A stretch of 64,000 bases of DNA from Actinobacteria bacterium UBA2286 (GTDB lineage: Bacteria > Actinomycetota > Coriobacteriia > Anaerosomatales > Anaerosomataceae): positions 23,061 through 87,060 of the forward strand of contig DDWM01000047.1 in NCBI GenBank assembly GCA_002345925.1, read 5' to 3'. Positions within the stretch are counted from its first letter, which is position 1; every line of letters begins with the position of its first letter. A program made the translations under genes and the position numbers. The notes beneath the pieces are model-generated. The model ran no database searches. It was not told the DNA's origin and saw nothing but the letters and a program-made list of their open reading frames with translations. Shown here piece after piece: positions 25,700 through 53,527 of the stretch.

Positions 25700-25754
25700 G
25701 GGTCACTCCTGGTAGAGAATTCGCTTCACCACCAACATACCACACCACGGCGGA

Positions 25755-29291: not shown

Positions 29292-30221
29292 CTACGGGAT
29301 GAGTCCGAAGGCGCGGCCGATGGACACAAGCGCCGGGCCGAGGACCACGATCAGCGTAGCGGGCAGGATGCAGAGCACGAGCGGGAAGACGATCTTGACT
29401 GGTGCCTTCTGGGCGATCTCCTCGGCACGCTGACGACGCTTGACTCGCATCTCTTTCGCTTGCGAGCGCAAGACGTTCGAGACGCTGATGCCGAATACAT
29501 CCGCCTGGACCATCGAGGTCACAAACGTGGAGACCTCGGGCACGTCTGTCCGTTCAGAGAGGTGACGGTACGCGTCTGTGCGCGGGATGCCGGCCTGGAT
29601 CTCCTGCAACATGCGCGCGAACTCCTCGGCGAGCGGACCGTGGCTGTTCGCGACGAGCTTTGCGACAGCTTGATCGAAGCCGAGACCCGCCTCAACGCTG
29701 ATGGTCAGCATGTCGAGCATGTCAGGCAATGCGCGCCTGATGGCGAGCTGTCGCTTGTTGACAGCCGACCACAGCGCGATGTCGGGCACGAAGAATCCGG
29801 CAGCGGCAGCAACCAGGCTCACGAGAAGCACTGTGCCACCGAAGCCGCGCAGCAAGCCGTACAAGATCACGCATGTGCCGTACGCAACGACGGCACAAAT
29901 CGCCTTGTATGTGAGGAACCCACTGACTTCCATGCCGCGCGGATTCCCCGCCTTGGCCAGCCGTACCCGCAGCCGCTCTACGTACGCGTCTGGAACAAGC
30001 GCGCGTAGTCCGCCGAGAATCGACGAACCCAAAGGGCGGGTGACGCGCTCTCCAAACGGCTTGAGCACCGGCGATGCGTCGGACACCTGCGAGCGCTCGT
30101 ATGCGCTGAGGCCCGCCAGGCGACGCTTCACGCGCCGCTCCCCCGAGAAGAGCAGATCGAAGACCGTGAACGCGAGCAGCGCCGCCCCAGCGCCAGCAAG
30201 AAGGATTGCGAGAGTGTCCAT
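29292..30221 (-). CDS. tadC: Tad pilus inner-membrane platform protein TadC (T2SS F-domain)
   Basis: 309 aa with a T2SSF-type domain and three TM helices. It is adjacent to the tadB-like gene. Confidence 0.8.
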   Translation of the reverse strand: MDTLAILLAGAGAALLAFTVFDLLFSGERRVKRRLAGLSAYERSQVSDASPVLKPFGERVTRPLGSSILGGLRALVPDAYVERLRVRLAKAGNPRGMEVSGFLTYKAICAVVAYGTCVILYGLLRGFGGTVLLVSLVAAAAGFFVPDIALWSAVNKRQLAIRRALPDMLDMLTISVEAGLGFDQAVAKLVANSHGPLAEEFARMLQEIQAGIPRTDAYRHLSERTDVPEVSTFVTSMVQADVFGISVSNVLRSQAKEMRVKRRQRAEEIAQKAPVKIVFPLVLCILPATLIVVLGPALVSIGRAFGLIP

Positions 30222-32135
30222 CTATATCTCCACCTTCGTGACGCGATTGAGCCACACCGCACCGACAAGCAACAGAACGCCGCCGCCAATTGCGAGCACC
30301 CACCCGAAGACGGCGGTCAGCATACCCGACATGTAGGTCGGGTTCACGAGCAGGATCGCCGCAAGCTCAACAAACGGCAGGAACAGCAGTATCCCTCCCG
30401 AGAGCCGGCCCTCGGCTGTGAGTGAACTGACATGCCGCTTGAGCTCGGCGCGCTCCCGCATCGTCGCCGCGACAATGTCGAGCACCTCGGCCAGGTTGCC
30501 GCCCACCTCTCGCTGAATCGCGATTGCCGAGACGGCCCACGCGAAGTCCTCGCTGCGGATCCGGTCGACCATGTGCTCAAGCGCTCGCTCGATCGGAAGC
30601 CCAAGCCGCGTCTCTGTCTGCGCGCGCCCAAACTCACCTGAGGCCGGTTGCGCCATCTGCTCGGCAACGAGTCCCACAGCCTGCAGGAATCCCCAGCCTG
30701 CCCGAAGCGAGCCGGCCAGCAGGTTCAGGACCTCCGGAAGCTGCTCCTCGAAAGCGGCGCGCCGCTTCTCGATACGGTTCTGCAGAAGCAGTAGCGGCAC
30801 GACCACGGCCACCAGTGCAACGATGATCGTTATGGCCAACGATCTTGTGACGAGCATCGCGAAGAGTCCAGAGGCAAACACCAGGACGAGGTGCAGGTAT
30901 ATGTACTCGGCAGGGCGAATCGGCAGTCCGGCGCGCTCCAAACGCTCGTGCATCATGCGCGTGAAACCCCATCTGCCCGCCACGTATCCGACAGCACCGC
31001 GCATCTTCGCCTGCAGCGCTGCGGGCGTTCCGGGGACGTCGGCGTCAGCTCCATCTCCCTCTGTGCCCAGCTGGTCGTAGAACTCGAGCCGCTCCAGTCC
31101 AAGAGACCGGCGCTGCAGCAGCAAGAAGACACCCCAAGCCAGGAGCATTGCCGAGGAGAATACCAACACGACCGCCAATATCCCCAGCAGCAGGTTCGGA
31201 CTAGGGGGGTCAAGCACCGGGCCGGTCGCCGCTGCGGCGTACAGCGGATTCGGTATCGTGAGGCCGCCAGTTGCCGTCTTATCGCCGAGGGATGCGGTGA
31301 CCTCTACCTCAAGGTCTTTCGTATTGGGACTGAGGCTCTTGTACGTGACCAGATACTGAAGCCCGATCTCCTGCGAGAGCGCCTCATAGATTGACAGGAG
31401 TTCGCCGGAGTCCGCTGCGGCGACAGCCCTGCCGCCCGTCTCGGCAGCAAGCGAGCTGAGTGCCCGCGGATCCCACTCCTTCGATCGGAGCGTTACCGCG
31501 TATACCGCCGCGCCCGACGCTTTGAGCCGCTCGAGTGCCGTCTGGAAGCTGGCGACGCTCACAGTGTCACCGCCGTCGGACAGCAACACAACGCTGCTCT
31601 GGCGCTCGCTGTTGTCAGTTGCAAGCGCAGCCGCGCGTACAAGCGCGTCGTGCACCGCCGTTTCACCGGATGGCTTGAGACCATCAAGCGCCGACAGGAG
31701 AGCTTCCCGGTCATCGGTGAAGCCTTGCCTGACGTTCGGCTCGAAGGCGAAAGTCACGACCGCGGTTCGGTCTCCCGGCCTCATCGCGTCGATGAAGGCG
31801 CGGCCCGCAACGGTCGCGTCCTTGAGCGCTGCTCCCTTCATGCTCCCGCTGGTATCTATCACAAGCACAACGTCAACAGGCTCGCGCGCCGCGTCGGCCG
31901 GACTGCGCACGTCGGTGACATCGGCATCAACGCCGTTCTCTTGCACACGAAACGATGGAGTGTCCGGTCCGGCGCCGAGAACACCGCCTGGAAGCGTCAC
32001 AGATAGCGTCACGCCAGGAGGTTCGGTGATGTCCTCAACACGCACACCAAGCGTGCCGTCTGCGGCGAGCGCCGGCACGGGCACAACCATCAGAACCGCC
32101 ACGAAGAGCGCGATAAGTCTGCGCACTGTGCTCAC
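30222..32135 (-). CDS. tadB: fusion of an extracytoplasmic von Willebrand A domain with the TadB platform domain
   Basis: It has a signal peptide, a vWA MIDAS motif (VVLVIDTSGSMKG), TM helices, and a T2SSF domain in the C-terminal ~300 aa. Confidence 0.8.
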   Translation of the reverse strand: MSTVRRLIALFVAVLMVVPVPALAADGTLGVRVEDITEPPGVTLSVTLPGGVLGAGPDTPSFRVQENGVDADVTDVRSPADAAREPVDVVLVIDTSGSMKGAALKDATVAGRAFIDAMRPGDRTAVVTFAFEPNVRQGFTDDREALLSALDGLKPSGETAVHDALVRAAALATDNSERQSSVVLLSDGGDTVSVASFQTALERLKASGAAVYAVTLRSKEWDPRALSSLAAETGGRAVAAADSGELLSIYEALSQEIGLQYLVTYKSLSPNTKDLEVEVTASLGDKTATGGLTIPNPLYAAAATGPVLDPPSPNLLLGILAVVLVFSSAMLLAWGVFLLLQRRSLGLERLEFYDQLGTEGDGADADVPGTPAALQAKMRGAVGYVAGRWGFTRMMHERLERAGLPIRPAEYIYLHLVLVFASGLFAMLVTRSLAITIIVALVAVVVPLLLLQNRIEKRRAAFEEQLPEVLNLLAGSLRAGWGFLQAVGLVAEQMAQPASGEFGRAQTETRLGLPIERALEHMVDRIRSEDFAWAVSAIAIQREVGGNLAEVLDIVAATMRERAELKRHVSSLTAEGRLSGGILLFLPFVELAAILLVNPTYMSGMLTAVFGWVLAIGGGVLLLVGAVWLNRVTKVEI

Positions 32136-33499
32136 CGCCTCGCGGGAGGCTCGTAAGCGAACACTTCTGCAGGCAGATGAATGCCCAGATCTTCCAGATG
32201 CGCCGCGAACTTGGGACGCAGCCCCGTGCCTTTCAGTTGGCCAAGAGACCGGCCATCATCGTCCACGCCCATGGTGAAGTCGTAGTAGAAGATGTCCTGG
32301 AGTACGACGGTGTCGCCCTCCATCCCCTCAACCTCGGCTATCTGCACGATTTTTCGCGAGCCGTCCCGCAGACGCTGTAGCTGGACGATCATGTGAAGGG
32401 CCGAGGATGTCTGCTCCCGAATCGCGCGGATCGGCAGGTCGTAGCCACTCAGCAGCACCATCGTCTCAAGGCGCGCGAGGGAGTCTCTCGGCGAGTTGGC
32501 GTGAATGGTCGACAGAGAGCCCTCGTGACCGGTGTTCATCGCCTGGAGCATGTCGAGTGCCTCGGCTCCACGCACCTCACCGACGACGATACGGTCGGGA
32601 CGCATACGCAGCGCGTTGCGGACGAGGTCGCGGATGGAAATCTGGCCTTTGCCTTCAATGTTCGGCGGGCGCGATTCCAGTCTCAGCACATGACTCTGGC
32701 CTAGGCGCAGCTCCGCCGCGTCCTCGATGGTCACGATCCGTTCATCGTCAGGCACGAACGCCGACACGACGTTCAGAAGCGTGGTCTTGCCGGTACCCGT
32801 ACCTCCCGAGATCAGGATATTGAGACGGCCGTGAACGCACGCTTTCAGGAACTCGGCAGCGTGGGCATCGAGGGTCCCGAATGTGATCAGGTCATCGATC
32901 GTGTACGGCTCCTGCGAGAACTTCCGGATCGTCAGCATTGGACCGTTGATCGCCAGCGGATGGATGATCGCGTTCACGCGCGACCCATCAGGAAGCCGCG
33001 CGTCCACCATCGGTGACGATTCATCGATTCGGCGACCGACCTGTCCGACGATCTTGTCGATGATGCGCATGAGGTGCGCCTCATCGATGAAACGCTGTCC
33101 TGTGAGATAGAGGCGTCCGCGACGCTCGACGTAAACCGTGTCGGCGTTATTGACCATCACCTCGGTGACTTCCGGATCGCTGAGCAGCGCCTGCAGCGGC
33201 CCATAACCGAGTATGTTGTCGATCACATCGGCTGAGATCTCACGCCGATCCGATGCGGACAGCGGCGTACTCTCTCGTCCAAGCAGCTCGCGGAGCTTGG
33301 CCTCGATTGAGGACCGCATCGCGGCCTCGTCGAGGTCTGGCATAGACAACTCTGTGCCCATCTCCTCGATTAGCAGATAGTGCAGACTGCGCTTGATCGC
33401 ATCCTTCACACTCTCGGCAATCTGCTCGGTCGCTCTGTCACGTTCCTCCACTACCTGCACAGTGCCCTCGGTCTGCCCTAGTCTCTCTCTAAGCGACAC
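32132..33499 (-). CDS. cpaF: Tad pilus secretion ATPase CpaF/TadA
   Basis: Walker A is [41 protein letters not shown] is the typical CpaF signature. Confidence 0.92.
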
Positions 33500-34640
33500 T
33501 GCTGCTCACCTCCTCGCATCCCGCTGCGATGTTCTTCGCCAAATCTCCCAGGGCATGAGCGACGCCTGAACGCGGCGCATCCAAGACAACGGGGATGCCT
33601 CTATTCACGGACCGCGGGACAAGCCTGTCACTTGGTAGCTCCGCCACCACCGGAGCGTTGATCGTGCGCTCAGCCTCGCCCGGGTCAAGCCATACCTTGC
33701 TATCTGCCCTGTTGATCACAAGGCGGATGAGACCGTTGTCGTATCCCATTTGCGCAAGCTTCTGTAGTGAGACCCTCACATTCTTGATGCTGGCAACATC
33801 CATGGTCGCGACCGCGTAGACCGCGTCGCTGTTGTCGATGGCGGCCAGAACGACGTCGTCCAGCGCGGCGGACGTGTCGATCACAACAACATCCGCAATC
33901 TGGCTCAGCAGGCTGATAATCGCGTTGATGCGGTTGACTGTGACAACCTCCGCATCCTCCGGATGCACGGGAGCAAGCAGCACCTGCAGCCCGGAGGAAT
34001 GCGGCGTCAGAAAGCCACGGAGCATCTCGGCGTCCAGCCGGTCGAAGGACTGGATCGCCTCGAAGATCGTCCGCTCGGGAACCAGATCGAGCATGATGCC
34101 AACGTCCCCGAACTGCAGATCCAGGTCGACCAGCACGGTCTTGAGGCCAAGCTTGGCGAGCGCAACGCCGACATTGCACGAGATCACCGTCTTGCCTACA
34201 CCACCCTTTGTGCTGAACACCGTGACGACTCTGCCGCGCGAGGGCACAGACACGGGGTGCGCCTCTTCCAGGCGTGGCCCCGAGGTCGCCAGTGCGGCCT
34301 GAATCGCGCGAACCACCTCACCAAATTGCTGATCCATCGGTACGACATCGTGCACACCCGCGCGCATCGCGCGCCGCAGCAAGTCGGTGGACTCCTCAGA
34401 GCTGACCAGAACGATCGCGACCGCACCGTCGGGTCTGAGTGTCTCGGCAAACTCGACGGCAACCGCCGGAGCTACGGATGACCCCAGCACGAGCACGTCG
34501 GGGCGACGCAGCGGAAGCAGCGCACTCGCCTCCTCAAGGGTTCGCACCTCATCGCAACGCACGTCCGTTTCGCCTTCAAGGAGTGCGCGTAGGCGACGAC
34601 AGAACCGGGCGTCCGAATCAGCTATGAGAACCAGACCCAT
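33489..34640 (-). CDS. cpaE: CpaE/TadZ-like: receiver-like domain plus a ParA/MinD-type ATPase
   Basis: It has an N-terminal REC-like fold and a deviant Walker A (FSTKGGVGKT). Confidence 0.8.
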   Translation of the reverse strand: MGLVLIADSDARFCRRLRALLEGETDVRCDEVRTLEEASALLPLRRPDVLVLGSSVAPAVAVEFAETLRPDGAVAIVLVSSEESTDLLRRAMRAGVHDVVPMDQQFGEVVRAIQAALATSGPRLEEAHPVSVPSRGRVVTVFSTKGGVGKTVISCNVGVALAKLGLKTVLVDLDLQFGDVGIMLDLVPERTIFEAIQSFDRLDAEMLRGFLTPHSSGLQVLLAPVHPEDAEVVTVNRINAIISLLSQIADVVVIDTSAALDDVVLAAIDNSDAVYAVATMDVASIKNVRVSLQKLAQMGYDNGLIRLVINRADSKVWLDPGEAERTINAPVVAELPSDRLVPRSVNRGIPVVLDAPRSGVAHALGDLAKNIAAGCEEVSSSVA

Positions 34641-34649
34641 GGAATCCCC

Positions 34650-35420
34650 CTATTTGTAGATGGTCTTTATGTTGCGACCCGGCGTCCCGGGAAGCTCGGT
34701 TTCAGTAGTAGGAAGCAGCGCGAGCCAAACAGAGCCCTGGCGCTCGGCAAACACGAGCTTCTCTACATCCTCAGGCTTCAGGGCCAGCGTGACCGTTGGC
34801 GACTGAGCGACCTCGCCCGTATTCGTCCCCCGAGCTCCGGTCGTGATCGCTCCGTCTTGCCCCGTGTCGCCGGGGCCGGTTCCCGTGCCCGTATCCAAAC
34901 CGACAGCTAGTACGCGTGCCTTCGGCAACAGAATCCTCGACTCTGCGTCCTTGCCATTGGGGCCAGGATCGAACGTCGCGGTGACAAGCACCCAGTCGCC
35001 TGACTTCAGCATTCCGCCAACGCATGTGACGTCATCAGCAGGAATGGAGACAGCCACGAATCCGTCGGGGATCGCAAATGATAGTCCCGCCTCGCTCGGG
35101 AACTGGAACCGCGCCCGTGTGACCTGCTCTCCCCTACTCAGCGTCGCCGCGAGCACCTGCCCCTCGATTCCGCGCACCGAAGAGACTGCACTTGCGGAGA
35201 CATACCGCTGCGGAACCTCCTGCATCTGGATGAACCCATCCTTGAGAGCCTCCTCTGCGGTCATGCCACGAGGCACGTCCTGCATGGCCACAAGCACCTG
35301 AACCGGCTCGGCCTCTTGTGTTAGTCGCGCCGTCGCTCCACGCAGGTACTGCGCGGTCACGAGCGCAGCCGCGACTCCTAGAATCACAGCAGCAATGAGG
35401 ATGAATACTCTCGACCGCAT
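34650..35420 (-). CDS. cpaB: Flp pilus assembly protein CpaB (SAF domain)
   Basis: The start is at the ATG at 35420 (MRSRVFILIAAVILGV). It has an N-terminal TM and a SAF-like VLVAMQDVPRGM segment. Confidence 0.8.
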   Translation of the reverse strand: MRSRVFILIAAVILGVAAALVTAQYLRGATARLTQEAEPVQVLVAMQDVPRGMTAEEALKDGFIQMQEVPQRYVSASAVSSVRGIEGQVLAATLSRGEQVTRARFQFPSEAGLSFAIPDGFVAVSIPADDVTCVGGMLKSGDWVLVTATFDPGPNGKDAESRILLPKARVLAVGLDTGTGTGPGDTGQDGAITTGARGTNTGEVAQSPTVTLALKPEDVEKLVFAERQGSVWLALLPTTETELPGTPGRNIKTIYK

Positions 35421-35439
35421 AGCGCACTCCTTCTTCAGG

Positions 35440-37059
35440 TCACTCCGGCGCCACGAGCCGGATAGTCTGCACGTAGAGTCCGTCGGGGCGCACGTCCGAG
35501 AGTGCATCCGAGGGAGCAACATATTCGATGAAGCGTCCGACGATCTTGTCTTTGGCAAGGTTGGAGCCGGGTTCGATGAAGAACGCCGCAAGGCTCACAA
35601 CGCGCATGGGCGACTTGCCTGTCACAACCTGCATCTTCTCAACGACCGGCACGTACACAACACGTGATGTTCCGGGCCGGCCGAGCGCCTCCCACTGGCT
35701 GAAGGTCAAGACGTCACCGGCGAACCGATCATCCAGCGCCTTCTCAGTGCTCGGCCCGGAAAGGGTTCCCGGCTCGGTCCAGACGGTGTCCCCGATATGG
35801 ACGACGAAGGGGAACTCCTCGGCCAGGTAGTGATAGTAGGCGGGCGGTTTGTAGCCCGGGTCTGAGGTGATGTCGTACTCCGCAGGGTCCTGCGGATCAC
35901 GCCAATTTGGCGGGTGCCTGAGCGACGCGAGGTCGATGGCGCAGAAGTTGCCGACCTCCCCCGCACCCCCAACTACCTTGAGTTCGTATTCGTTCCCGTA
36001 CACGTATTCGTTCAGCTGTACTGACACCGTGACCGCTTCACCGGGACCCGCCACGTAGCGCGCAAGCGTGATGTCGGAGATAGGGTACGTCGAGCGGCGC
36101 ACGAGAAGCATCGCTGCATCAGTGACGGTGGTCTTCCCGACGCTCACGTCGACCGGGAACGACGTCCACAGATCGTCGACAGTGGGTACACTGAGTGCGA
36201 TTGACCAGAGGTTCGGCTGTCCAGAGACAGCTGAGAGCTTAAGGTTCTTCCCGTTGAATCGTGCGTCGGGCTTGTCTGCAGCGCGAACGTAGAGCCGAAC
36301 GGCTGCTCCTGAACCAGAAGTCACAACGTACTTGTCGAGGTAGACGTCCTCGATCGCACAGCCCACTGGCGGCACAAAGACGGCGGCCGCACCTGAGACC
36401 TGCTCTGGCACGCCGTTCGGGTAGCTGCTTGTTCCGTCGGGATACGCAGTCTGCGAGTTGTATGCCGTGACGTCCACCTGATACCCGTCAAGCGAGCGTG
36501 TCGAGGGGGTAACGATACTGCCCTGCCACATACCGCCGCCACGGTCGCTAAGCCACACTTCCGGACCGCCTGCGATGCGCGCCGAAACCTTGGTCGCGTG
36601 CACAACCGGCACCGACCACGGCACCATGCCACGCATGCCCGTGAGGTAGGCGACCTGCGCCCTGGCTCGAGCCTGCACGGGCGCGGTCTGCAACCCGAGG
36701 ACGCGTGCGAAGAAGAGCGGAGACTCCTTCTCCACGGCCACCTGGACGTACTGGTCGGTCACCACCGTGTCCGGCGGATCGCTGAGCATCACCAGACCGT
36801 CGCCAGGCTTAGAAGCATTCTGAGCGGCGAACGACTCTGCCTCAATCAGTGCAGCAGCATGACTACCACCATCAGCTAGGATGCGGCAACCCGCAAGAGC
36901 ACCAGCGTCGGCGGCTGTTTGGAGCTGTCGACGAACGCTCAAGAGATAGCCCACGTCCACAGCTATGGCCGCGAACAACACAAGAACAACTATGAGAATG
37001 GCAACCGTGACAGCGACTCCGCCATCATCGCGCCGAATAAGCGACTTCATTACAATCAC
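35440..37059 (-). CDS. TadG-like minor pilin / pilus-associated large protein
   Basis: The N-terminus (GGVAVTVAILIVVLVLFAAIAVDVGYLLSVRRQLQTAADAGALAG) matches the TadG N-terminal pseudopilin-like motif. 539 aa. Confidence 0.7.
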   Translation of the reverse strand: MIVMKSLIRRDDGGVAVTVAILIVVLVLFAAIAVDVGYLLSVRRQLQTAADAGALAGCRILADGGSHAAALIEAESFAAQNASKPGDGLVMLSDPPDTVVTDQYVQVAVEKESPLFFARVLGLQTAPVQARARAQVAYLTGMRGMVPWSVPVVHATKVSARIAGGPEVWLSDRGGGMWQGSIVTPSTRSLDGYQVDVTAYNSQTAYPDGTSSYPNGVPEQVSGAAAVFVPPVGCAIEDVYLDKYVVTSGSGAAVRLYVRAADKPDARFNGKNLKLSAVSGQPNLWSIALSVPTVDDLWTSFPVDVSVGKTTVTDAAMLLVRRSTYPISDITLARYVAGPGEAVTVSVQLNEYVYGNEYELKVVGGAGEVGNFCAIDLASLRHPPNWRDPQDPAEYDITSDPGYKPPAYYHYLAEEFPFVVHIGDTVWTEPGTLSGPSTEKALDDRFAGDVLTFSQWEALGRPGTSRVVYVPVVEKMQVVTGKSPMRVVSLAAFFIEPGSNLAKDKIVGRFIEYVAPSDALSDVRPDGLYVQTIRLVAPE

Positions 37060-37517
37060 TCGATTCGCATGGTTGCAGTGCTTCTAAGGAGAAACGTCCC
37101 GTCGGAAGTCCCGAATATCTCCTGCATGAGCGGTGTGAACACCGGTACTTCATGGGTGACGGTGACCGTAGCCGCATCACCCACGTCGCCGATGCCGGGA
37201 TCCTCAGGATTGACGATGATGTCCGCATCCGTGAGTTCGAGACCTGGCGAAGACTGAGCCGCTTTGTATCTCACGGTACCCGGCGTTGAAACGGATCCCG
37301 CCGGATACTCTAGAGCGACCCATCGCACGCCTTCACGCGCGGCGTGAGTGAGCTCGACCCACTGGAAGAAAAGAAACCCGAATTGGATGATGCCAACGAG
37401 CAAGATGACGAGCATGCCCGAGACAAGAGCAAACTCGACTGCAGCGGCACCGTCATCGGCACCCGCTCTCTTACGTCGCCACAAAGTAAGCACCCCCCAC
37501 CGAACAGCCGAACCCAT
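37056..37517 (-). CDS. tadE: TadE-like pseudopilin
   Basis: The GAAAVEFALVSGMLVILLVGIIQFG motif is present. The start is at the ATG at 37517. Confidence 0.75.
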   Translation of the reverse strand: MGSAVRWGVLTLWRRKRAGADDGAAAVEFALVSGMLVILLVGIIQFGFLFFQWVELTHAAREGVRWVALEYPAGSVSTPGTVRYKAAQSSPGLELTDADIIVNPEDPGIGDVGDAATVTVTHEVPVFTPLMQEIFGTSDGTFLLRSTATMRIE

Positions 37518-37554
37518 CCGGGGACCCGAATTCGGGTCCCCGGATACATATCGA

Positions 37555-37737
37555 CTACGCCGCGATGAGCTTGTCCAAGACTGTCTGGAACAGAGCTGCG
37601 AGCTCATCACCAATCAAGAAGACGACCGTCAGAATGGCAACAGCGATCGCGGCGACCATGATGCCGTACTCGACTGCTGTAGCTCCCTCCTCAGCCTTGC
37701 TGTGATCGAGGGCCCACGCATAGAACTTGAGCAACAT
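37555..37737 (-). CDS. flp: Flp-family type IVb pilin
   Basis: 60 aa. EEGATAVEYGIMVAAIAVAIL is the Flp G/xxxxEY processing-site and hydrophobic-core motif. A strong SD (GGAGGGAGG) lies upstream. Confidence 0.85.
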   Translation of the reverse strand: MLLKFYAWALDHSKAEEGATAVEYGIMVAAIAVAILTVVFLIGDELAALFQTVLDKLIAA

Positions 37738-37872: not shown

Positions 37873-38517
37873 TCACTCCGTGGGGGTGGGTGGATGAACG
37901 AGGCCGCGACGCATCGCATCGACGACCGCATGCGTGCGATCGCCTTGCCCGAGCTTCCGCAGGATATGGCTGACGTGCGTCTTCACCGTGGGCTCGGATA
38001 TCCAGAGTGCTCGTGCGATTTCGCGATTGCTCGCCCCTCGAGCCATGATCGCGAGCACGTCCATCTCTCGCTCCGAGAGCCCGGGGTCATCAGACTCGAC
38101 TCCCGGGGTGCCATGTATGACACGTCTAGCTATGGCACTGTCGAGCACCGTCTGTCCTTCAAATACGTTCCTGATCGATTCAACGAGCGCTGACGGGCTT
38201 GTGTCCTTCATAAGGTAGCCGACCGCCCCTGCGGACAGAACACCAAAGATCTCGTCGTCCTCGTCATAGCTCGTCAGGATGATCACCTTCAGCTGTGGCC
38301 AAGCGTCGAGCATGCTGCGGCACGCTTCCAGACCACCTATCCCTGGCATGTGCAGGTCAAGCAACACCACATCCGGCTCAGCTGTCTCAAGGAGCATCAA
38401 TGCATCTTCTCCGCACGCAGCCTCACCGACCACACACATGTCGTGCTCGGACTCTAGCGATGTTCGGAGCGCATAGCGAACCAGCTCATGATCATCGACT
38501 ACAACCACTCGTATCAT
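37873..38517 (-). CDS. NarL/LuxR-family response regulator
   Basis: The REC domain begins MIRVVVVDDHELV and there is a C-terminal LuxR HTH (LSEREMDVLAIMARGASNREIA). The start is at the ATG at 38517. Confidence 0.9.
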   Translation of the reverse strand: MIRVVVVDDHELVRYALRTSLESEHDMCVVGEAACGEDALMLLETAEPDVVLLDLHMPGIGGLEACRSMLDAWPQLKVIILTSYDEDDEIFGVLSAGAVGYLMKDTSPSALVESIRNVFEGQTVLDSAIARRVIHGTPGVESDDPGLSEREMDVLAIMARGASNREIARALWISEPTVKTHVSHILRKLGQGDRTHAVVDAMRRGLVHPPTPTE

Positions 38518-38530
38518 CTGGCGACCTTCC

Positions 38531-39763
38531 TCATGCGGGAATGTACGCCCTAACGGCACACCCCTGGCCGATTGCAGACACGATGCCAACCTCGCCACCT
38601 GCACGCTGTACACGTTGCTGGAGTCCCTGCAGGCCCATGCCGCTGCCCGCATCGCTCTCTGCTAGCGCGTGCTCCACATCAAAGCCGCAGCCGTCATCTT
38701 CCACGGTGAGGCTGACGCCCTCAGACAGATACTCCAGCGCAACGCGGATGTTGCTCGCGCCGGAATGCTTCACGGCGTTCGTTGTCGCCTCGCGGGCTAC
38801 ACGATAGACACAGGTCTCAAGCTCTGCACCAACATGCCTTGCTTCACCGTTCACGACAAGACTCACCTCGCGAGTCCCATCGTTTGCGATTTCGTGCAAC
38901 CAATACTCGATGGCGCCCACAAGCCCCAATTCCTGCAGCTTTGCGGGGCGAAGGTCGTAAATGTAGCGACGAATCTCCCCCTGGCTCCCCGCTAGGAGCT
39001 CCTGGATCTCGGAAATCTGACTCACAACCCGCGCTGGATCTCGCATCACCTGTCGCTTGCACACCTCGAGCGACAGCGAGATTGAGAAGAGTGACTGCGC
39101 AATACCATCGTGCATTTCGCGCGAGATCCTCTCGCGTTCGCTGGAAAGCAGCGCATAGCGAGACTCCTCGGCGAGTCGGGCATTCTCGATAGAGGCCGCA
39201 GCGAAGGCACCAAGGATCGAAAGGAATGCGGTCTGCTCGCCACGAAGCCTATGCGTCACGGAGTTGATGACACACAGAACCCCGAGCGGCCGATCCTGAA
39301 CCCTCACGGGGACGGCCATGCACCACGCGCCGACCCCTTCATCGACTTCAAAGAACGGTTGTCCGTCGGCAAACACCCGGTCGGCCGCGCCTGGAAGCCA
39401 CCCTCCCCACCACGCCTCATCGTGCTCCGCACGAGAACCGCGCACCATGATGCTCGATCCATCAAGCTGGAGTGCGTCGGCTGAGTCATCAACCAGACAC
39501 AGCACGACCTTCTCGGTGCCGGTGAAGCGCTTGGCTGCATCAACGATGATGCCGAGAACATCGTGAACCGTCCGCGCCGAAGACGTTTGAGCGGCCACCG
39601 CGTTGAGTGCATTGATGAGTGCGTTATGGCTCGCGGGTCCGTCCGGAACATACCGCGCGCGAACCTGTCCACGAAGCAGCCTCAATGGCAGCATCCGCAG
39701 GAAGTCCTTCGCTCTCGTCGCTCGAACGACCATTACGCGGGGCCCCCCTCCGCGCGTCGCCAT
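38531..39763 (-). CDS. cytoplasmic GAF-domain sensor histidine kinase (HisKA_3 type)
   Basis: It has a GAF-like N-terminal half, an H-box (RERISREMHDGIAQSL) and HATPase_c motifs. No TM helices are present. Confidence 0.85.
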   Translation of the reverse strand: MATRGGGPRVMVVRATRAKDFLRMLPLRLLRGQVRARYVPDGPASHNALINALNAVAAQTSSARTVHDVLGIIVDAAKRFTGTEKVVLCLVDDSADALQLDGSSIMVRGSRAEHDEAWWGGWLPGAADRVFADGQPFFEVDEGVGAWCMAVPVRVQDRPLGVLCVINSVTHRLRGEQTAFLSILGAFAAASIENARLAEESRYALLSSERERISREMHDGIAQSLFSISLSLEVCKRQVMRDPARVVSQISEIQELLAGSQGEIRRYIYDLRPAKLQELGLVGAIEYWLHEIANDGTREVSLVVNGEARHVGAELETCVYRVAREATTNAVKHSGASNIRVALEYLSEGVSLTVEDDGCGFDVEHALAESDAGSGMGLQGLQQRVQRAGGEVGIVSAIGQGCAVRAYIPA

Positions 39764-39899: not shown

Positions 39900-40808
39900 C
39901 TACGTCATCCGGTCGGCGACTGCCGCGACGATGCCTCGGGCGGCGGTCAGTCCCGGGGCGGCTTCCACTAGCAGCACCCCGGCGCTCTCGCCGGTGGCTA
40001 GGCGCTGCAGCACCGAAGCAAGCGTTGGGTCGAACGGAATCTCGCCGAGAAGCTCAAGGCCCTCTGCGGCAACGCGCGCCCGGATCCGCTCGGCACCACG
40101 CTCTGAGAGGTCTGCCTTGTTGAGCACCACCGCGACCTTCACGTTCAGGCGACGCGCAAGCGCCACGAGTCGCAGTAAGTCGGATTCACCTGAAAGCGTG
40201 GGCTCGGTGACGGCGACCAGCAGGTCGGTGTTAGTGATGGACGCGATAACCGGACAGCCAACGCCGGGAGGTCCGTCTATCAAGAGGAGCTCCGCATCGC
40301 TTTCCTCGGCCATGGTCTTGGCACGGGAACGGACCTCCGTGACGAGCTTGCCCGAGAGATCCTCCCCTGGGCCAAGCTGACCGAAGGAGACCGGCCCGAC
40401 CGCAGATGTGCCAGCGAACACCTCGCCGGCGCTTTTCTTCTGCATCGAGATCGCGTGGTATCCGCAGCTCGGCACACATGCGCCACACCCCTCGCATAGC
40501 CAGGGATCCACACGGTACGCGGGCGACTCCTCGTCCCGCTTCGGGCGCACGAGCGCGTCGAAGCGGCATGCGCGCAGACACACCCCACACCCGCGACACG
40601 CGATGGGATCTATGAACGCCTCGGCCCCGCCGGAGAAGCTCTCGGATGCAGTCGTGGTGACCGAAAGTGCGATAGGCAGATTCGACGCCTCTACGTCGCA
40701 GTCGGCGAGCACCAGACGATGGTTCTCCGCGAGCATCACCGCAGCGAGCGCGGTGAGGGTCGTCTTGCCTGTACCGCCCTTGCCGGAGGCGAACACTATG
40801 CTCTTCAC
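39900..40808 (-). CDS. MinD-superfamily P-loop ATPase with an inserted 2x[4Fe-4S] ferredoxin domain (COG1149-like)
   Basis: Walker A is ASGKGGTGKT. The Cys clusters are CRGCGVCLRAC and CEGCGACVPSC. GTG at 40808 overlaps the upstream stop (GTGA). Confidence 0.8.
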   Translation of the reverse strand: MKSIVFASGKGGTGKTTLTALAAVMLAENHRLVLADCDVEASNLPIALSVTTTASESFSGGAEAFIDPIACRGCGVCLRACRFDALVRPKRDEESPAYRVDPWLCEGCGACVPSCGYHAISMQKKSAGEVFAGTSAVGPVSFGQLGPGEDLSGKLVTEVRSRAKTMAEESDAELLLIDGPPGVGCPVIASITNTDLLVAVTEPTLSGESDLLRLVALARRLNVKVAVVLNKADLSERGAERIRARVAAEGLELLGEIPFDPTLASVLQRLATGESAGVLLVEAAPGLTAARGIVAAVADRMT

Positions 40809-41719
40809 TCTGCCTCCACGGTCAATTGAGCGATACCGTCCCAGATGGCGTCGAACCACCCGGCAGCATCGGGATGCGAATCGAGCACCAGCCCGCCGTC
40901 GGCGTAGGCCTCGGCAATCGAGCGGTCGAACGGGATGCGCGCGAGAACAGAAACGCCTGCATCTAGCAGGTACGCGTCCAGGTCTGCACTACCCGCACCG
41001 TCGCGGTTGATGACAACGCCCATTGGGATTCCCAGATCTCTGCCGAGACGAACCGCCAGGTCCAGGTCGTGAAGGCCGAACGGAGTCGGCTCTGTGACGA
41101 GCACTAGCATATCGACTCCGTGCGTCGCTGCGACAGCCGAACAGGCAACACCGGGAGACGCATCGAGAATGGTGATGTTTCGGGAGAACACGTCGGCCTG
41201 ACGCCTTGCGGCTCTGATGACGTTGGTCGCCTTGACGTCGCCGATCTCCAACCGCCCCGTAACCATCTTGATGCCCCCCGGGTCGGCGACGCCAACGGGG
41301 ACCGCACCCCATTCGACGTCGCCGACCCGCTGAGGAACCTCGGTTATCGCTGCGGTCGGACATACAGTCGTGCACAAGCCGCAGCCGTGACACAGTTCGG
41401 CGAACACAACAACGGTGTCGCCGAGCAGTCGAATCGCTCCGTACGCGCACGCGTCGCGGCATTTCCCGCACGAGGTGCATGCAGCCTGATCGACGGTTGC
41501 GAGCGGGAAGGTCACCTCTCGGCTGTCGAGGGTCTCAGGCGCGAGGAATAGCGCGTCGTTCGGCGCCTCCACATCGCAATCAACAAGCACTGTCGGGACA
41601 CCTGCCCTTGCGGTCGCAACCGCAAGGTTGGTGGCGACCAGCGTCTTGCCGGTGCCGCCTTTTCCCGATGCTATGGCGATCGTCAGTCGACGTCCCGGCA
41701 ACATGCCGTGCTCGACCAT
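40805..41719 (-). CDS. MinD-superfamily P-loop ATPase with an inserted 2x[4Fe-4S] ferredoxin domain (COG1149-like), paralogue
   Basis: Walker A is ASGKGGTGKT. The Cys clusters are CTSCGKCRDAC and CHGCGLCTTVCP. Confidence 0.8.
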   Translation of the reverse strand: MVEHGMLPGRRLTIAIASGKGGTGKTLVATNLAVATARAGVPTVLVDCDVEAPNDALFLAPETLDSREVTFPLATVDQAACTSCGKCRDACAYGAIRLLGDTVVVFAELCHGCGLCTTVCPTAAITEVPQRVGDVEWGAVPVGVADPGGIKMVTGRLEIGDVKATNVIRAARRQADVFSRNITILDASPGVACSAVAATHGVDMLVLVTEPTPFGLHDLDLAVRLGRDLGIPMGVVINRDGAGSADLDAYLLDAGVSVLARIPFDRSIAEAYADGGLVLDSHPDAAGWFDAIWDGIAQLTVEAE

Positions 41720-41722
41720 CGG

Positions 41723-42106
41723 CTAGTGCCCGCCGCAGACGTCGCCCGGCTCGATGATGGCGACTTCGCCGGCGATGAGTGCCGCGACCGCGTCGCTCAC
41801 CATGGGACGCTCGTTGTCGAAGTAGACCGTGATACCGACGTCATTGAAGCCAGCAAGCGGACGACCGCCGATTCCGGCTACTACCAGCGCGGTCACGCCT
41901 TCGCCGGCAAGCAGCTGAACCGGCTGCAGGCATCCACCCTCGACGTGCGGCGGATTAGCCACGATACGAACTCCGGCGACAGCACCATCGGCGATATCGA
42001 TCACCGTGAAGCAGTCACAGTGCCCGAAGTGCCCGGAGCGCTCGACATCCATACCGCCCTCGCCGTTGGAGGGCACTGCCAGCACGATCTTCCCATTCTC
42101 GGCCAT
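41723..42106 (-). CDS. NifX/NifB-C-terminal-like (dinitrogenase FeMo-cofactor-binding fold) small protein
   Basis: 127 aa. SGHFGHCDCFTVIDI ... ALVVAGIGGRPLAGF is typical of COG1433-type proteins. Confidence 0.75.
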   Translation of the reverse strand: MAENGKIVLAVPSNGEGGMDVERSGHFGHCDCFTVIDIADGAVAGVRIVANPPHVEGGCLQPVQLLAGEGVTALVVAGIGGRPLAGFNDVGITVYFDNERPMVSDAVAALIAGEVAIIEPGDVCGGH

Positions 42107-42130
42107 GTGAATTCCTTTCTCGTGCCAGCC

Positions 42131-42490
42131 TTAGCCGGCGTGGGCTTCGCCCGCTTCTGTGAGTTCTTCAAGCGATCCTGCGGCGAACGCCGCGATCGCG
42201 TCACGCACCGTCATTCCTGCACCGTTGTAACCACGGACCCCGGCAACCCCCAGAGCGGCAAAAGCCTTAGGGCCGAGATGACCCGTGATGACCGTCTTGG
42301 CCCCGTGGTCGGAAACGATCTCCGCCGAGGCGATACCCGCACCCTGCAGTGCGTTGCGGTTAGTAGCGTTCTCGATTGACTCAAGCGAGTCGTTTTCGGT
42401 ATCGGCAACGATGAAGTACATCGCGCGGCCGAAGCGTTCGTCGACGCGATCGTCCAATCCCGGTCCGAATGCAGAGACGACTACCTTCAT
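42131..42490 (-). CDS. NifX/NifB-C-terminal-like small protein, paralogue
   Basis: ERFGRAMYFIVADTEN ... TVITGHLGPKAFAAL motifs are present. The ATG at 42490 overlaps the upstream stop (ATGA). Confidence 0.75.
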   Translation of the reverse strand: MKVVVSAFGPGLDDRVDERFGRAMYFIVADTENDSLESIENATNRNALQGAGIASAEIVSDHGAKTVITGHLGPKAFAALGVAGVRGYNGAGMTVRDAIAAFAAGSLEELTEAGEAHAG

Positions 42491-42696
42491 CGCGTCCACC
42501 GCCGACCAAGACCCTGACCCATACCCGCGCCGCGCCCCACACCGCGCCCCAGACCGCGTCCACGACCGAGACCGAGGCCGCGACCGAAGCCGAAACCGGT
42601 GCGATTCTCATCCGTCGCGATAGCCATGCACGCCCCGCGGCCACCACCTGTAAGCGGACCCTTGCCTTCCGGACCCGTAGCATTACGTCCTGGCAT
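42487..42696 (-). CDS. DUF5320-like Gly/Arg-rich small protein
   Basis: 69 aa: MPGRNATGPEGKGPLTGGGRGAC... followed by GFGFGRGLGLGRGRGLGRGVGRGAG. AAGGAGG lies 7 nt upstream of the ATG at 42696. Confidence 0.65.
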   Translation of the reverse strand: MPGRNATGPEGKGPLTGGGRGACMAIATDENRTGFGFGRGLGLGRGRGLGRGVGRGAGMGQGLGRRWTR

Positions 42697-43135
42697 CGTT
42701 CGTACCTCCTTCTGTCTCTGCGCTCTCCCCACCAGGGAAGACGGCTTTAACCTCATCGATGAGGACTTCGAGCACCCTGCGGCGCTCCTCCAGGTGAGCC
42801 AGCCAATGGCCAAGCAACACCCGTCCCTCATCGGTCAGCTTGTAGGCACGACGCTGTGGACCCGAGTCTCCGTCTTCCCACGTTGAGATGACGGTTCCCG
42901 CAGCCTCGAAACGCCGGAGCATCCGGTACAGACCGCCGGGATCAGGCGTAAGCTCCCCGTCAGTCATCTCCTCGATGATGCGGACGAGGTCGTAGCCGTG
43001 GGCCTCAGAGCGCGCAAGTGCCGCCAGAATCGTCGGCTCCAGCAAGCTACCCCGTCCAACACCGACACCCCGACCACGACCGCCGCCTTCGCAGCAGCGT
43101 CGTCGTACAGGCTCAGGGTGTGATAGGTCTTCCAT
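42683..43135 (-). CDS. PadR-family transcriptional regulator with a Cys/Gly/Arg-rich N-terminal extension
   Basis: PadR wHTH: ILAALARSEAHGYDLVRIIEEMTDGELTPDPGGLYRMLRRFEAAGTV. The start is at the ATG at 43135 with an AAGGAG SD. Confidence 0.85.
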   Translation of the reverse strand: MEDLSHPEPVRRRCCEGGGRGRGVGVGRGSLLEPTILAALARSEAHGYDLVRIIEEMTDGELTPDPGGLYRMLRRFEAAGTVISTWEDGDSGPQRRAYKLTDEGRVLLGHWLAHLEERRRVLEVLIDEVKAVFPGGESAETEGGTNDART

Positions 43136-43155
43136 AGTGACTCCTTGTGCGTTGC

Positions 43156-43181
43156 TGACATCTATATGTATATGACATCTA
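43156..43181 (-). promoter_or_regulatory. AT-rich repeat element (TGACATCTA-N8-TGACATCTA) in the PadR operon promoter, candidate PadR operator
   Basis: It lies 21-46 nt upstream of the PadR ATG. It contains alternating ATGT/ACAT half-sites like those reported for PadR-family operators, and overlaps plausible -10 hexamers. Confidence 0.4.
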
Positions 43182-43211
43182 GGTGTGCAAAGCAAGCTCT
43201 ACCAACATGGA

Positions 43212-43246
43212 GGCACAAGAAAGGGCGCCGCTTTCGCGACGCCCTT
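43212..43246 (-). terminator. intrinsic terminator after ftsH
   Basis: The minus-strand RNA is AAGGGCGUCGC-GAAA-GCGGCGCCCUU (11 bp, GNRA loop) followed by UUUCUUGUG. It lies 24 nt after the ftsH stop. Confidence 0.65.
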
Positions 43247-51583: not shown

Positions 51584-52693
51584 GTGACATCCTTCTACCT
51601 TACAGACCTCGCGCTTGAGCCTATTGCCGCCAAGGTCATGGCAGGCGAACGCCTCACTCGCGAAGACGGCTTGACGCTTTACGCAAGCAACGACTTGCTC
51701 GGCATCGGCCAGATGGCCGATCACGTTCGCCGTACGATCAATGGCGATCGCGTGCATTTCATGGTGAATCGCCACATCAACCCGACCAACATCTGCGAGA
51801 ACCGCTGCAAGTTCTGCGCGTTCTCCCGCAGCAAGGGCCAGGACGGCGCTTACGAGATGACGCTCGACGAGATCGTCAAAGCTGCCGAGGAGGCCGTGCC
51901 CGAGGGCGCACACGAGGTGCACATCGTTGGCGGCCTGCACCCCGACTGGCCGTTCGAGTTCTACCTCGACATGATGCGCCGCCTTCGCGCTGCTCTGCCG
52001 CCGCACGTGATCATCCAGGCGTTCACCGCCGTTGAGATCGAGTTCTACTCGCAGATCAGCGAGCTCTCCACGCTCGAGGTGCTGCGCCAGCTGAAAGAAG
52101 CCGGGCTCGACTCCATGCCGGGCGGCGGCGCCGAGATCTTCTCGGACAGGACGCGCATGGCTGCCTGGGACAAGAAGACCTCGGCGGACGACTGGCTCCG
52201 AATCCACGGCGAGGCGCACTCGCTTGGCATCAAGACGAACTGCACGATGCTATACGGTCACATCGAGACCCTCGAAGAGCGCGTCGATCACCTCGTCCGC
52301 CTACGCGAGCAGCAGGACGTAAGCGGCGGCTTCCTCGCGTTCATCCCGCTCGCCTTCCACCCGCTCAACACCGAGCTTGCCGACCTGCCCGGCACGACCG
52401 GCTTCGATGATCTCAAGACGCTCGCGATCGCGCGCCTGATGCTCGACAACATCGGGCACATCAAGGCGTTTTGGATCATGGTCGGCATGAAAGTCGCGCA
52501 GCTCTCCACGGCGTTCGGTGTTGACGACCTCGACGGCACAGTCGTCGAGGAGCGCATCACGCACATGGCCGGCGCGGTCACGCCTGAGGCGCTCAGCAAA
52601 GAGGATCTTCTCGGCATGATCCGTGAGACCGGACACGTGCCGGTTGAGCGCGACACGCTGTACAAAGTGATTCGCGTCTACGACGAGGTGTAA
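51584..52693 (+). CDS. mqnE: aminofutalosine synthase (radical SAM, MqnE-type)
   Basis: The radical SAM motif is CENRCKFCAF. HIVGGLHPDWPFEFY, AFTAVEIEF, TMLYGHIET and GGFLAFIPLAFHP are features I associate with MqnE rather than MqnC. GTG start with a GGAG SD. Confidence 0.75.
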   Translation: MTSFYLTDLALEPIAAKVMAGERLTREDGLTLYASNDLLGIGQMADHVRRTINGDRVHFMVNRHINPTNICENRCKFCAFSRSKGQDGAYEMTLDEIVKAAEEAVPEGAHEVHIVGGLHPDWPFEFYLDMMRRLRAALPPHVIIQAFTAVEIEFYSQISELSTLEVLRQLKEAGLDSMPGGGAEIFSDRTRMAAWDKKTSADDWLRIHGEAHSLGIKTNCTMLYGHIETLEERVDHLVRLREQQDVSGGFLAFIPLAFHPLNTELADLPGTTGFDDLKTLAIARLMLDNIGHIKAFWIMVGMKVAQLSTAFGVDDLDGTVVEERITHMAGAVTPEALSKEDLLGMIRETGHVPVERDTLYKVIRVYDEV

Positions 52694-52696
52694 ACC

Positions 52697-53527
52697 ATGC
52701 TGCGTCCGCGCCTCGGCCATATCCAGTTCATCAACTGCCTGCCTCTGTACTACGGCATGGTGAAGAACGACGTGCTCCTCGACGTCGACCTGGTGAAAGC
52801 GAACCCGGCCGACCTAGCAGCAGAGCTGCTTGACGGACGTCTCGACGTGGCACCGATTCCGGCTATAGAGTACGCGCGGCACGCAGACAAGTTCGTGCTG
52901 CTGCCGGATATCGCGATCTCATCAGAAGGTGAGGTCCAGTCGATACTCCTGGTCTCGAAGGTACCTGCCGAGGAGCTCTCGGGCTGCACCGTGGCGCTTA
53001 CCGACACCTCGCGCACTTCGCAGGTGCTCGCGCGCGTGCTCATCGCGAAGCGCTGGGGCGCAGAGGCAACGTACACCGAGATGCCGCCGGACTTGCCGGC
53101 GATGCTTCGGGATGCCGACGCCGCGCTGCTCATCGGTGACGAGGCACTCCGCGCGTACTGGGACCACCCCGAGGGGCTCTACACGTACGACCTCGGCACC
53201 GAATGGACAACGTGGACCGACCTGCCGATGGTGTACGCCGTATGGGCTGTGCGCCGCACATATGCCGAGGAGAACCCGGCCGCAGTGCAGGCCGTCGCCG
53301 ACGCGCTGACGAACTCACTCTCCTACTGCCGCGGCCACCTCGACGATATCAGCGAGTACGCCGCGCGCTGGGAGCAGTTTCCCGCCGAGAAATTCCGCAG
53401 CTACTTCGACGCGCTGCGCTTCCGCTTCCAGCCGCAATTCCGCGAAGGTCTCGCGCGCTATCTGGCCGAGGCGGTCGCTATCGGACAGCTCGATGCGGTT
53501 CCGACGATTGAGGTGTTCGGCGAATGA
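52697..53527 (+). CDS. mqnA: chorismate dehydratase (futalosine pathway)
   Basis: LGHIQFINCLPLYYG and the periplasmic-binding-protein-like fold are typical of MqnA. Confidence 0.8.
   Translation: MLRPRLGHIQFINCLPLYYGMVKNDVLLDVDLVKANPADLAAELLDGRLDVAPIPAIEYARHADKFVLLPDIAISSEGEVQSILLVSKVPAEELSGCTVALTDTSRTSQVLARVLIAKRWGAEATYTEMPPDLPAMLRDADAALLIGDEALRAYWDHPEGLYTYDLGTEWTTWTDLPMVYAVWAVRRTYAEENPAAVQAVADALTNSLSYCRGHLDDISEYAARWEQFPAEKFRSYFDALRFRFQPQFREGLARYLAEAVAIGQLDAVPTIEVFGE

Follow-up and report, generated by a model that had tools for sequence, protein, structure and literature searches.

In the 64,000-nucleotide stretch of contig DDWM01000047.1 of Actinobacteria bacterium UBA2286 (the whole stretch is called the window below), the minus-strand operon at 39900–43135 comprises six genes, encoding a PadR-family repressor, a DUF5320 protein, two NifX-like proteins (NifX-like 1 and 2) and two ferredoxin-type ATPases (ATPase 1 and 2), in this order. 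By sequence comparison, it is an actinobacterial version of the described orange-protein (ORP) complex, a system of functionally unsettled kind. We think it likely that the operon encodes an ORP-type system for buffering, mobilising or transferring metal-sulfide clusters, and not for the synthesis of a nitrogenase cofactor. A sequence-only reading of the window had called the system unexplored, with no substrate, cofactor or phenotype assigned to the families involved. This claim fails because a functional characterisation of the ORP complex has been published, with its cluster, the co-purification of its components and a morphology phenotype (PMC6345978, PMC8359166); the storage of thioferrate by IssA has been published as well (PMC5524996). 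The ORP complex occurs widely among strict anaerobes, has a high content of Fe-S clusters and is not expressed except at very low redox potential. The window holds nothing categorically new in this respect; what it features is a compact form of the system, with one promoter, a simple repressor and a predicted operator.

The ORP complex was described in Desulfovibrio vulgaris Hildenborough and D. gigas. Two of its components, Orp3 and Orp4, are ATPases paralogous to each other that bear a pair of [4Fe-4S] ferredoxin motifs apiece; Orp5 has a small [2Fe-2S] protein as a homologue, and Orp9 (MrpORP) is a two-domain carrier with a NifX-like domain (PMC6345978, PMC8359166). Orp8 is the homologue of ORP, and the cluster of ORP homologues, [S2MoS2CuS2MoS2], is bound non-covalently (PMC6345978). 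Orp3, Orp4 and Orp8 co-purify and show Fe-S absorbance; the expression of the orp genes needs the Fe-S redox sensor OrpR, a PAS-type enhancer-binding protein, the loss of which leads to morphological defects (PMC6345978, PMC8359166). The genes are on only at low redox potential, about −425 mV, and are switched off by sparging, which the authors suggest to act by removing H2S (PMC8359166).

As a reference for the comparison we used the metagenomic locus encoding the closest relative of the D. gigas ORP, identified by a search with the D. gigas ORP sequence and denoted L084. Its ORP is 75% identical to that of D. gigas. The gene order in L084 is DUF134, a 112-aa Gly-Arg-Gln-rich Cys protein, ORP, the two ATPases A1 and A2, an HFGHC-type NifX (N2) and a Zn-ribbon protein. 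Four genes of the window have reciprocal best matches in this locus: ATPase 1 with A1 (40% identity, 202 vs 116 bits), ATPase 2 with A2 (44%, 205 vs 124 bits), NifX-like 1 with ORP (47%), and NifX-like 2 with N2, which follows the ATPases (43%). Hence these matches, together with those in PDB and NCBIfam given below, indicate that the window holds an ORP-type operon.

The two NifX-fold proteins both belong to Nitro_FeMo-Co (PF02579), with the Pfam scores of 76.3 and 66.0 bits, and are of different types. NifX-like 1 (42131–42490, minus strand, 119 aa) is an ORP-type, Orp8-like carrier. Its best PDB match is the D. gigas ORP (2WFB, E 5.8e-22), followed by MTH1175 (2.6e-18). It contains no Cys, has an acidic isoelectric point (pI) of 4.8 and no tail; the motifs RFGR, GAG and GxxGPxA are conserved. 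NifX-like 2 (41723–42106, minus strand, 127 aa) represents the Cys/His NifX-fold, or Di-Nase, type, with the pattern HFGHC...H54...C124; H26, F27, G28, C30, H54 and C124 are nearly invariant in 37 relatives. This pattern corresponds to CxHFGHCE...CDH, reported in MrpORP for its Di-Nase domain, which binds Fe-S (PMC6345978), and NifX-like 2 matches the C-terminal domain of the NCBIfam MrpORP model (positions 266–363) with E 1.1e-10, far below the family cut-off.

ATPase 1 (40805–41719, minus strand, 304 aa), of the A1 type as in L084, carries an inserted 2x[4Fe-4S] ferredoxin domain and is taken to be Orp3/Orp4-like. ATPase 2 (39900–40808, minus strand, 302 aa, GTG start) is its A2-type paralogue. 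Both match CbiA, ParA and Fer4 in Pfam and have the same architecture, with a MinD/NifH-like P-loop GKGGTGKT and two CxxCxxCxxxC motifs; they are 35% identical to each other.

The features common to the ORP complex and the window are two paralogous MinD-like ATPases with two [4Fe-4S] ferredoxin motifs each, a Cys-less Nitro_FeMo-Co carrier of the ORP type, a Cys/His Di-Nase domain with HFGHC, and the restriction to anaerobes. The differences are in the layout and control. The genes of the ORP complex form a pair of divergent operons controlled by sigma-54, OrpR and IHF, whereas the window has one operon with PadR and a predicted palindromic operator. In the ORP complex the Di-Nase domain is fused to an Mrp/NBP35 P-loop domain, whereas in the window it is a stand-alone protein of 127 aa. 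Finally, the window has a DUF5320 gene, in a minimal form. PadR control, the stand-alone Di-Nase and the minimal DUF5320 are the features of this variant.

The six genes are co-directional and closely set, as the sequence-only reading had stated, and the junctions lie where it had placed them. The PadR stop and the DUF5320 start overlap by 14 nt (42683–42696), an ATGA overlap at 42487–42490 joins DUF5320 to NifX-like 1, and a GTGA overlap at 40805–40808 joins ATPase 1 to ATPase 2. The spacers are 24 nt between the NifX-like genes and 3 nt between NifX-like 2 and ATPase 1. All family assignments of that reading, that is, PadR, DUF5320, two NifX-like proteins and two ferredoxin ATPases, were reproduced by Pfam, each above the curated cut-off. 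An identical locus is present in two public metagenome assemblies, where independent callers predicted the same five genes downstream of PadR, and PadR itself with the length of 150 aa in one assembly and 120 aa in the other. Among named relatives, an unclassified Actinomycetota metagenome-assembled genome (MAG) is nearest, with 93% identity at ATPase 1; the remaining close matches come mostly from Coriobacteriia MAGs.

Conservation of the neighbourhood was analysed starting from an ATPase-profile scan with one genome per species. At least 560 stretches matched, and the best 80 loci were taken; since these are the best matches to ATPase 1, the sample is biased. In 79 loci anchored on an A1-type gene, open reading frames (ORFs) were classed by pairwise phmmer/HMMER scores and the strict DUF5320 motif. 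The 80 loci represent Coriobacteriia, Chloroflexota, Desulfobacterota, Planctomycetota, Bipolaricaulota, Thermotogae, Aminicenantes, Altiarchaeota, Bathyarchaeia and others. The A2-type paralogue is present in 77 of the 79 loci, nearly always directly downstream of A1, the ORP type in 69, and any NifX-fold gene in 73. The Di-Nase type was found in 43 loci, in 39 of them together with the ORP type, DUF5320 in 32, and PadR in 10. Many loci also contain a third, Mrp-like ATPase or an Mrp-Di-Nase fusion of the MrpORP type. The co-clustering of these families in anaerobes, asserted in the sequence-only reading, is correct. As the same gene set recurs across dozens of phyla, the six-gene arrangement is not due to chance. 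The analysis shows that the constant core consists of the ATPase pair and the ORP-type carrier, with DUF5320 as a frequent component.

Recurrent neighbours in these loci were identified by clustering and Pfam. They are a Cys-rich Zn_ribbon_8 protein (19 loci), an OrpR-like sigma-54 activator (17 loci, but absent from the window), an MBL-fold protein (15), DUF134, ARMT1/DUF89 and radical SAM (14 each), a methyltransferase (12), a pyridine-nucleotide disulfide oxidoreductase, Pyr_redox (10), DUF364/DUF4213 (8) and FeoB (5); ZIP is also among the recurrent metal- and sulfur-related neighbours. The regulator alternates among the loci, being PadR, DUF134 or OrpR-like, with Fur in one DUF5320-anchored locus. 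The Zn_ribbon_8 protein, the most frequent extra neighbour, is FmdB-like, about 84 aa long, and has a Cys-rich C-terminal tail; it is encoded, for instance, at L044 4037–4291, and also at L084 10669–10917 and L086 10651–10905.

The Nitro_FeMo-Co fold of the carriers and the likeness of the ATPases to NifH and BchL, along with a radical SAM gene in 14 of the 79 loci, could be read as maturation of a nitrogenase-like cofactor (NifB-co/FeMo-co type) for a client encoded elsewhere, with NifH-like ATPases and NifX-like carriers. We consider this very improbable. The annotated window ORFs include neither nitrogenase nor molybdenum genes, and the absence of nif context agrees with the sequence-only reading; nifB, nifEN, nifDK or a homologous scaffold are absent from the window ORFs and do not recur in the 79 loci, the recurrent neighbours of which include neither nitrogenase nor any single client pathway. 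Moreover, the carriers match ORP and MTH1175 and not NifX or NafY: the PDB matches are ORP, MTH1175, TM1290, TM1816 and PH0822, with NafY and NifX not among them, and NifB yields just E 0.0013, far below the cut-off. The ATPases, too, do not have the NifH-type intersubunit cluster arrangement and contain the ferredoxin insert in its place.

The general scheme is similar to that of the nitrogenase Fe protein NifH and the NifX/NafY carriers: in both cases a SIMIBI-class dimeric Fe-S ATPase is paired with small Nitro_FeMo-Co-fold carriers. The spacing of the Cys in the D..PG..C pattern after the Walker B/switch II Asp of the window ATPases is the one which we take to be that of Asp125...Cys132 in NifH. 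On the other hand, NifH has a bridging cluster, whereas the window has two paralogues with ferredoxin-domain inserts. A similar relation holds for the Fe-S cluster carrier ATPases Mrp/NBP35/ApbC, which share with the window the deviant Walker A P-loop and the Fe-S handling role. The window ATPases are without the CxxC bridging motif of Mrp and contain the ferredoxin insert; the window operon has no Mrp-type gene.

The alignment of the ATPase 1 family shows that GKGGTGKT, DCD, the eight ferredoxin cysteines and PGxxC are invariant. Almost without exception, both the A1 and A2 types have GKGGTGKT, two CxxCxxCxxxC motifs and a Cys seven residues past the Walker B Asp. The AlphaFold2 (AF2) model of ATPase 1 is of moderate confidence (pLDDT 74), and solved relatives bearing the insert were not found. 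A Foldseek search with this model retrieved MinD, FlhG, NifH, BchL, CooC and ApbC about equally (TM-score ~0.45–0.5), these being generic class matches. A natural A1-linker-A2 fusion with a linker of about 30 aa, denoted P0076, was observed in a Lentisphaerales MAG (L091 4261–5836; two assemblies). Its locus also contains an OrpR-like regulator, a NifX-fold gene, DUF5320 and an ARMT1-like gene. In the AF2 model of the fusion the second half is unfolded (pLDDT <50); MAFFT placed all homologues on the first half, and therefore the model is uninformative about the geometry of a dimer. The data show that the pair arose by an ancient duplication, the two paralogues having stayed side by side in many phyla and become fused in one lineage.

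The fold of the ATPases, like that of MinD, FlhG and FleN, raises the alternative that the operon encodes a MinD/ParA-like positioning or cell-division system of anaerobes, with the ATPases placing some cellular structure and the small proteins acting as regulators or cargo. In D. vulgaris without orp expression the cells show defects in their morphology, MrpORP has a polar location, and a connection with cell division was proposed by the authors (PMC6345978, PMC8359166). Further, ATPase 1 ends in a conserved aromatic helix (WFxxLW). Still, there is only a slim chance that this alternative is correct. No MinC/MinE or ParB-like partner adjoins the pair in the 79 loci; what constantly goes with it are the NifX-fold carriers of metal clusters and genes related to metal or sulfur; the eight invariant ferredoxin cysteines per subunit indicate redox chemistry; and the morphology defect could stem indirectly from disturbed Fe-S metabolism. 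The scores of the window ATPases with the MinD equivalogs are 69 bits for TIGR01969 (cut-off 201.75) and 33 bits for TIGR01968 (cut-off 212.9), and the Min partners MinC and MinE were found neither in the window nor in the related loci. The helix itself, HPxxxxWFxxLW in ATPase 1 and its orthologues (40805–40870 in the window), could serve in membrane targeting or partner binding, as in MinD.

The DUF5320 gene (42487–42696, minus strand) encodes a protein of 69 aa that matches PF17253 with 35.4 bits (cut-off 27). It contains 24 Gly, 11 Arg and one Cys, and its pI is 12.0. The N-terminal motif MPxxNxTGPxGxGPxTGxGxGxC is followed by Gly/Arg repeats. The family consists of ~3,090 representatives at E<=1e-10, and its members have three parts: the invariant N-terminal motif MPxxDxTGPxGxGPxTGxGxGxC, Gly/Arg/aromatic repeats and usually a C-terminal helix. 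The window copy has no C-terminal helix. The single Cys is invariant in the family alignment, and a Met beside it is often conserved. The 150 best-scoring representatives are all small, and some have a tandem-duplicated N-terminal motif. A homologue search with the DUF5320 protein yielded stand-alone small proteins only and no fusions. DUF5320 genes looked up independently adjoin DUF134, NifX-fold genes and the ATPase pair.

The scan of the loci revealed that in Chloroflexota, Desulfobacterota, Planctomycetota and others the ORP-type carrier continues into a (GMGR)n tail plus a helix, examples being L021 6862–7452 and L054 7352–7954. These fused tails match the DUF5320 hidden Markov model at positions ~25–94 with E down to 1e-12, and the terminal helix of 30 residues aligns with DUF5320 in the profile-profile comparison by hhalign with the probability of 98% and E 1.2e-13. 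The searchable literature contains only passing mentions of DUF5320 and nothing relevant on COG1149/COG1433, and none of the searchable ORP papers discusses DUF5320; in the searchable papers we have seen neither DUF5320 as a recurrent component nor its Gly/Arg region and helix as tails of carriers.

Two more kinds of similar proteins were observed. In L057 (7772–8002) and six other loci, proteins of about 76 aa with a DUF5320-like N-terminus (MPRGDGTG...GRGAG) and a C-terminal zinc-ribbon are encoded directly upstream of the ATPase pair. In L084, the gene before ORP (7414–7752) encodes the 112-aa Gly/Gln/Arg-repeat protein with a Cys, which has no Pfam match on record and no DUF5320 N-terminal motif; its composition is similar to that of DUF5320, and it may occupy the position of Orp7.

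The carriers with fused tails have the architecture of IssA. IssA (SipA) of Pyrococcus furiosus is a NifX-fold protein storing thioferrate; like its IssX relatives, it combines a globular domain with a cationic, Gly-rich tail containing one Cys, and the proposed function of the tail is to wrap chains of anionic (FeS2-)n (PMC5524996). Its globular domain is the same as in the window carriers (IPR003731/PF02579), and MTH1175, the second PDB match of NifX-like 1, was the structural template used for IssA. In both systems, a cationic Gly/Arg-rich segment with a single Cys is present and the binding of metal-sulfide is thought to be non-covalent. The arrangement is different. In IssA the cationic tail is in the same chain, resulting in a high pI, whereas in the window the carrier is acidic and tailless, and the basic Gly/Arg DUF5320 is encoded by a separate gene translationally coupled to that of the carrier. 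No ATPase partners of IssA are described in PMC5524996. For IssA, the literature gives induction by sulfide when iron is present, and the formation of thioferrate nanoparticles. The Thermococcales relatives respond to sulfide and iron (PMC5524996); the Archaeoglobus NifX/CbiA genes AF2378–2380 have constitutive high expression.

The PadR gene (42683–43135, minus strand; winged-helix PadR domain PF03551, 65.7 bits, E 3.8e-18) was identified by the sequence-only reading, the presence of the gene being correct and its start rather not. The longest ORF extends to TTG at 43195. An AAGGAG box is situated 6 nt before the ATG at 43135, and this ATG is most likely the start, giving a protein of 150 aa, with the TTG being less probable. 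The protein has an N-terminal tail with Cys-Cys and Gly/Arg (RRRCCEGGGRGRGVGVGRG). Its best PDB relative is TM0937 (2ESH), and the alignment covers the Gly/Arg segment. All ten PadRs linked to the cluster have N-terminal tails with Cys and Gly/Arg or basic residues, for example RRRCCEGGGRGRG, RPCCRRAGGGGRG, HRRCCGVGRGRGGGRG and GRGRGCRGAGRGRG.

Upstream of the gene we predict a palindromic PadR-type operator, CTAGATGT-N5-ACATATAG (43162–43182, no strand assigned), located between the putative −35 and −10 elements. A palindrome with the ATGT/ACAT core near the promoter of PadR itself is what is expected for this family. The predicted operator sequence occurs once in the 64-kb window, with the chance expectation of 0.03 matches. 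A copy with at most three mismatches is situated ~30–70 nt upstream of PadR in 7/7 loci with a close Coriobacteriia-type PadR, and there are only two other matches with three mismatches in 1.03 Mb of the loci. In several relatives the copy lies exactly between TTGACA and TATAGT. The alignment with relatives that have TTGACA-N17-TATAGT about the same palindrome places a putative sigma-70-type promoter, TTGCAC or TGCACA, a 17–18 nt spacer and TATAGA, at 43161–43190 (minus strand), overlapping the operator. As a scan with the strict sigma-70 consensus yields no promoter here, and terminator-like sites only at the chance level, this promoter remains inferred. PadR presumably represses its own operon from the palindrome, and we hypothesise that its tail senses a ligand. 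In the searchable papers we have seen neither PadR tails with Cys and Gly/Arg nor a conserved palindrome over the promoter.

Directly after the ftsH stop, at 43221–43246, there is an 11-bp G+C-rich hairpin with a GAAA loop, AAGGGCGTCGC-GAAA-GCGGCGCCCTT, followed by TCTTGTG and not listed by the consensus scan. It resembles a terminator of ftsH; if it is one, the PadR operon would have its own promoter.

If the operon is a metal-sulfide system as suggested above, its components may act as follows. The two ATPases would form an ATP-dependent heterodimer via the signature lysine of the deviant Walker A motif, as in MinD and NifH, and the small NifX-fold proteins would receive electrons or Fe-S units from the four [4Fe-4S] clusters of the heterodimer. 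For a physical complex like that of Orp3, Orp4 and Orp8 there is indirect support from the natural A1-A2 fusion and from translational coupling. The ferredoxin inserts may reduce or transfer metal-sulfide units on the acidic ORP carrier. This Cys-less protein would hold anionic Fe-S or thiometallate species non-covalently, as do ORP and IssA, possibly aided by the strongly basic DUF5320, which could neutralise the charge as a counter-ion and provide a ligand by its single Cys. A small Fe-S cluster of conventional type, serving as an intermediate, may be carried by the Cys/His Di-Nase protein. PadR would act as a repressor at the palindrome and come off it once its Cys-Cys/Gly-Arg tail detects the redox state or a ligand of the same kind. 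The net role of the system would be set in sulfidic, low-potential conditions.

Metal-cluster handling as a general idea is plausible, and several observations should be weighed against the specific model. The organism is an uncultured MAG. Published work disagrees on the natural ligand of ORP and has not settled what the complex does physiologically (PMC8359166). The orthology with the D. vulgaris proteins is shown only by way of the Desulfovibrio-type metagenomic locus; the operon has no Mrp/NBP35 domain of Orp9, and PadR replaces the sigma-54/OrpR control. The similarity in the Gly/Arg region is partly compositional; moreover, the ORP-type protein of the window has no cationic tail, and its DUF5320 lacks the very helix that the family shares with the fused tails. 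Finally, the Palaeococcus CobQ genes were placed in the same ATPase family by annotation only.

The metal in question could also be molybdenum or tungsten with copper, the ORP-type protein specifically binding the orange [S2MoS2CuS2MoS2]3- cluster and the operon detoxifying or trafficking thiomolybdate and copper in sulfidic habitats, with the ATPases giving reducing power. By general chemistry, Met and Cys would be soft ligands for Cu(I), and a conserved Met is often the neighbour of the Cys in the N-terminal DUF5320 motif. The closest solved relative of the carrier is the D. gigas ORP, the homologues of which carry that cluster non-covalently (PMC6345978). Yet this explanation seems unlikely, as no genes of Mo/W transport, molybdopterin or copper were found in the window or among the recurrent neighbours of the 79 loci. 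The neighbours are iron-related instead (FeoB, Fur, DUF364), and the response of the Thermococcales relatives to sulfide and iron points in the same direction.

The research lines on ORP and IssA probably concern the same machinery. A stronger and rather doubtful suggestion, which we put forward tentatively, is that ORP and IssA are two faces of one ancient inorganic metal-sulfide module, with a common grip made of Cys and Gly/Arg repeats, the ATPase pair as its engine and PadR as a direct sensor. The Cys and Gly/Arg element would grip anionic iron-sulfide or thiometallate chains, occurring in three forms: free DUF5320, tails of the ORP/IssA-type carriers and the N-terminal tail of PadR. The ferredoxin-ATPases might be the missing ATP- and electron-driven engine that loads or mobilises a mineral-like store, and PadR might sense metal-sulfide species directly, a role not described before. 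If ORP and IssA indeed share their machinery, this would open a route to understanding how anaerobes buffer iron sulfide or thiometallates.

According to the ORF annotation, the operon is preceded by the housekeeping genes tilS-hpt-ftsH and followed by a kinase/regulator pair and a Tad pilus; NAD, folate, biotin-ligase, MoxR and futalosine genes were annotated as well. An Rfam scan yielded no riboswitch or other RNA element. The pair, a GAF-HisKA_3 histidine kinase and a LuxR-type response regulator (37873–39763), is co-directional with the operon and lies downstream of ATPase 2 at a distance of ~135–200 nt, and no terminator is obvious in between. It was considered as a possible part of the system and left out, because it is not conserved beside the cluster in other loci.

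Further downstream, at 29292–37737, there is a complete Flp/Tad pilus cluster, encoding Flp, TadE, Tad, RcpC, the T2SSE ATPase and VWA/T2SSF proteins and including a CpaE-like ATPase fused to a response regulator. Two small adjoining gene pairs at 25006–26156 resemble, by their translations only, PIN (VapC)-type toxins with ribbon-helix-helix antitoxins. A cluster at 6711–11149 consists of genes for MoxR AAA ATPase, DUF58 (VWA), DUF4350 and DUF4129. Finally, at 51584–54735 radical-SAM genes similar to CofH/MqnC flank a gene whose N-terminus looks MqnA-like by eye, and together these genes suggest the futalosine route to menaquinone.

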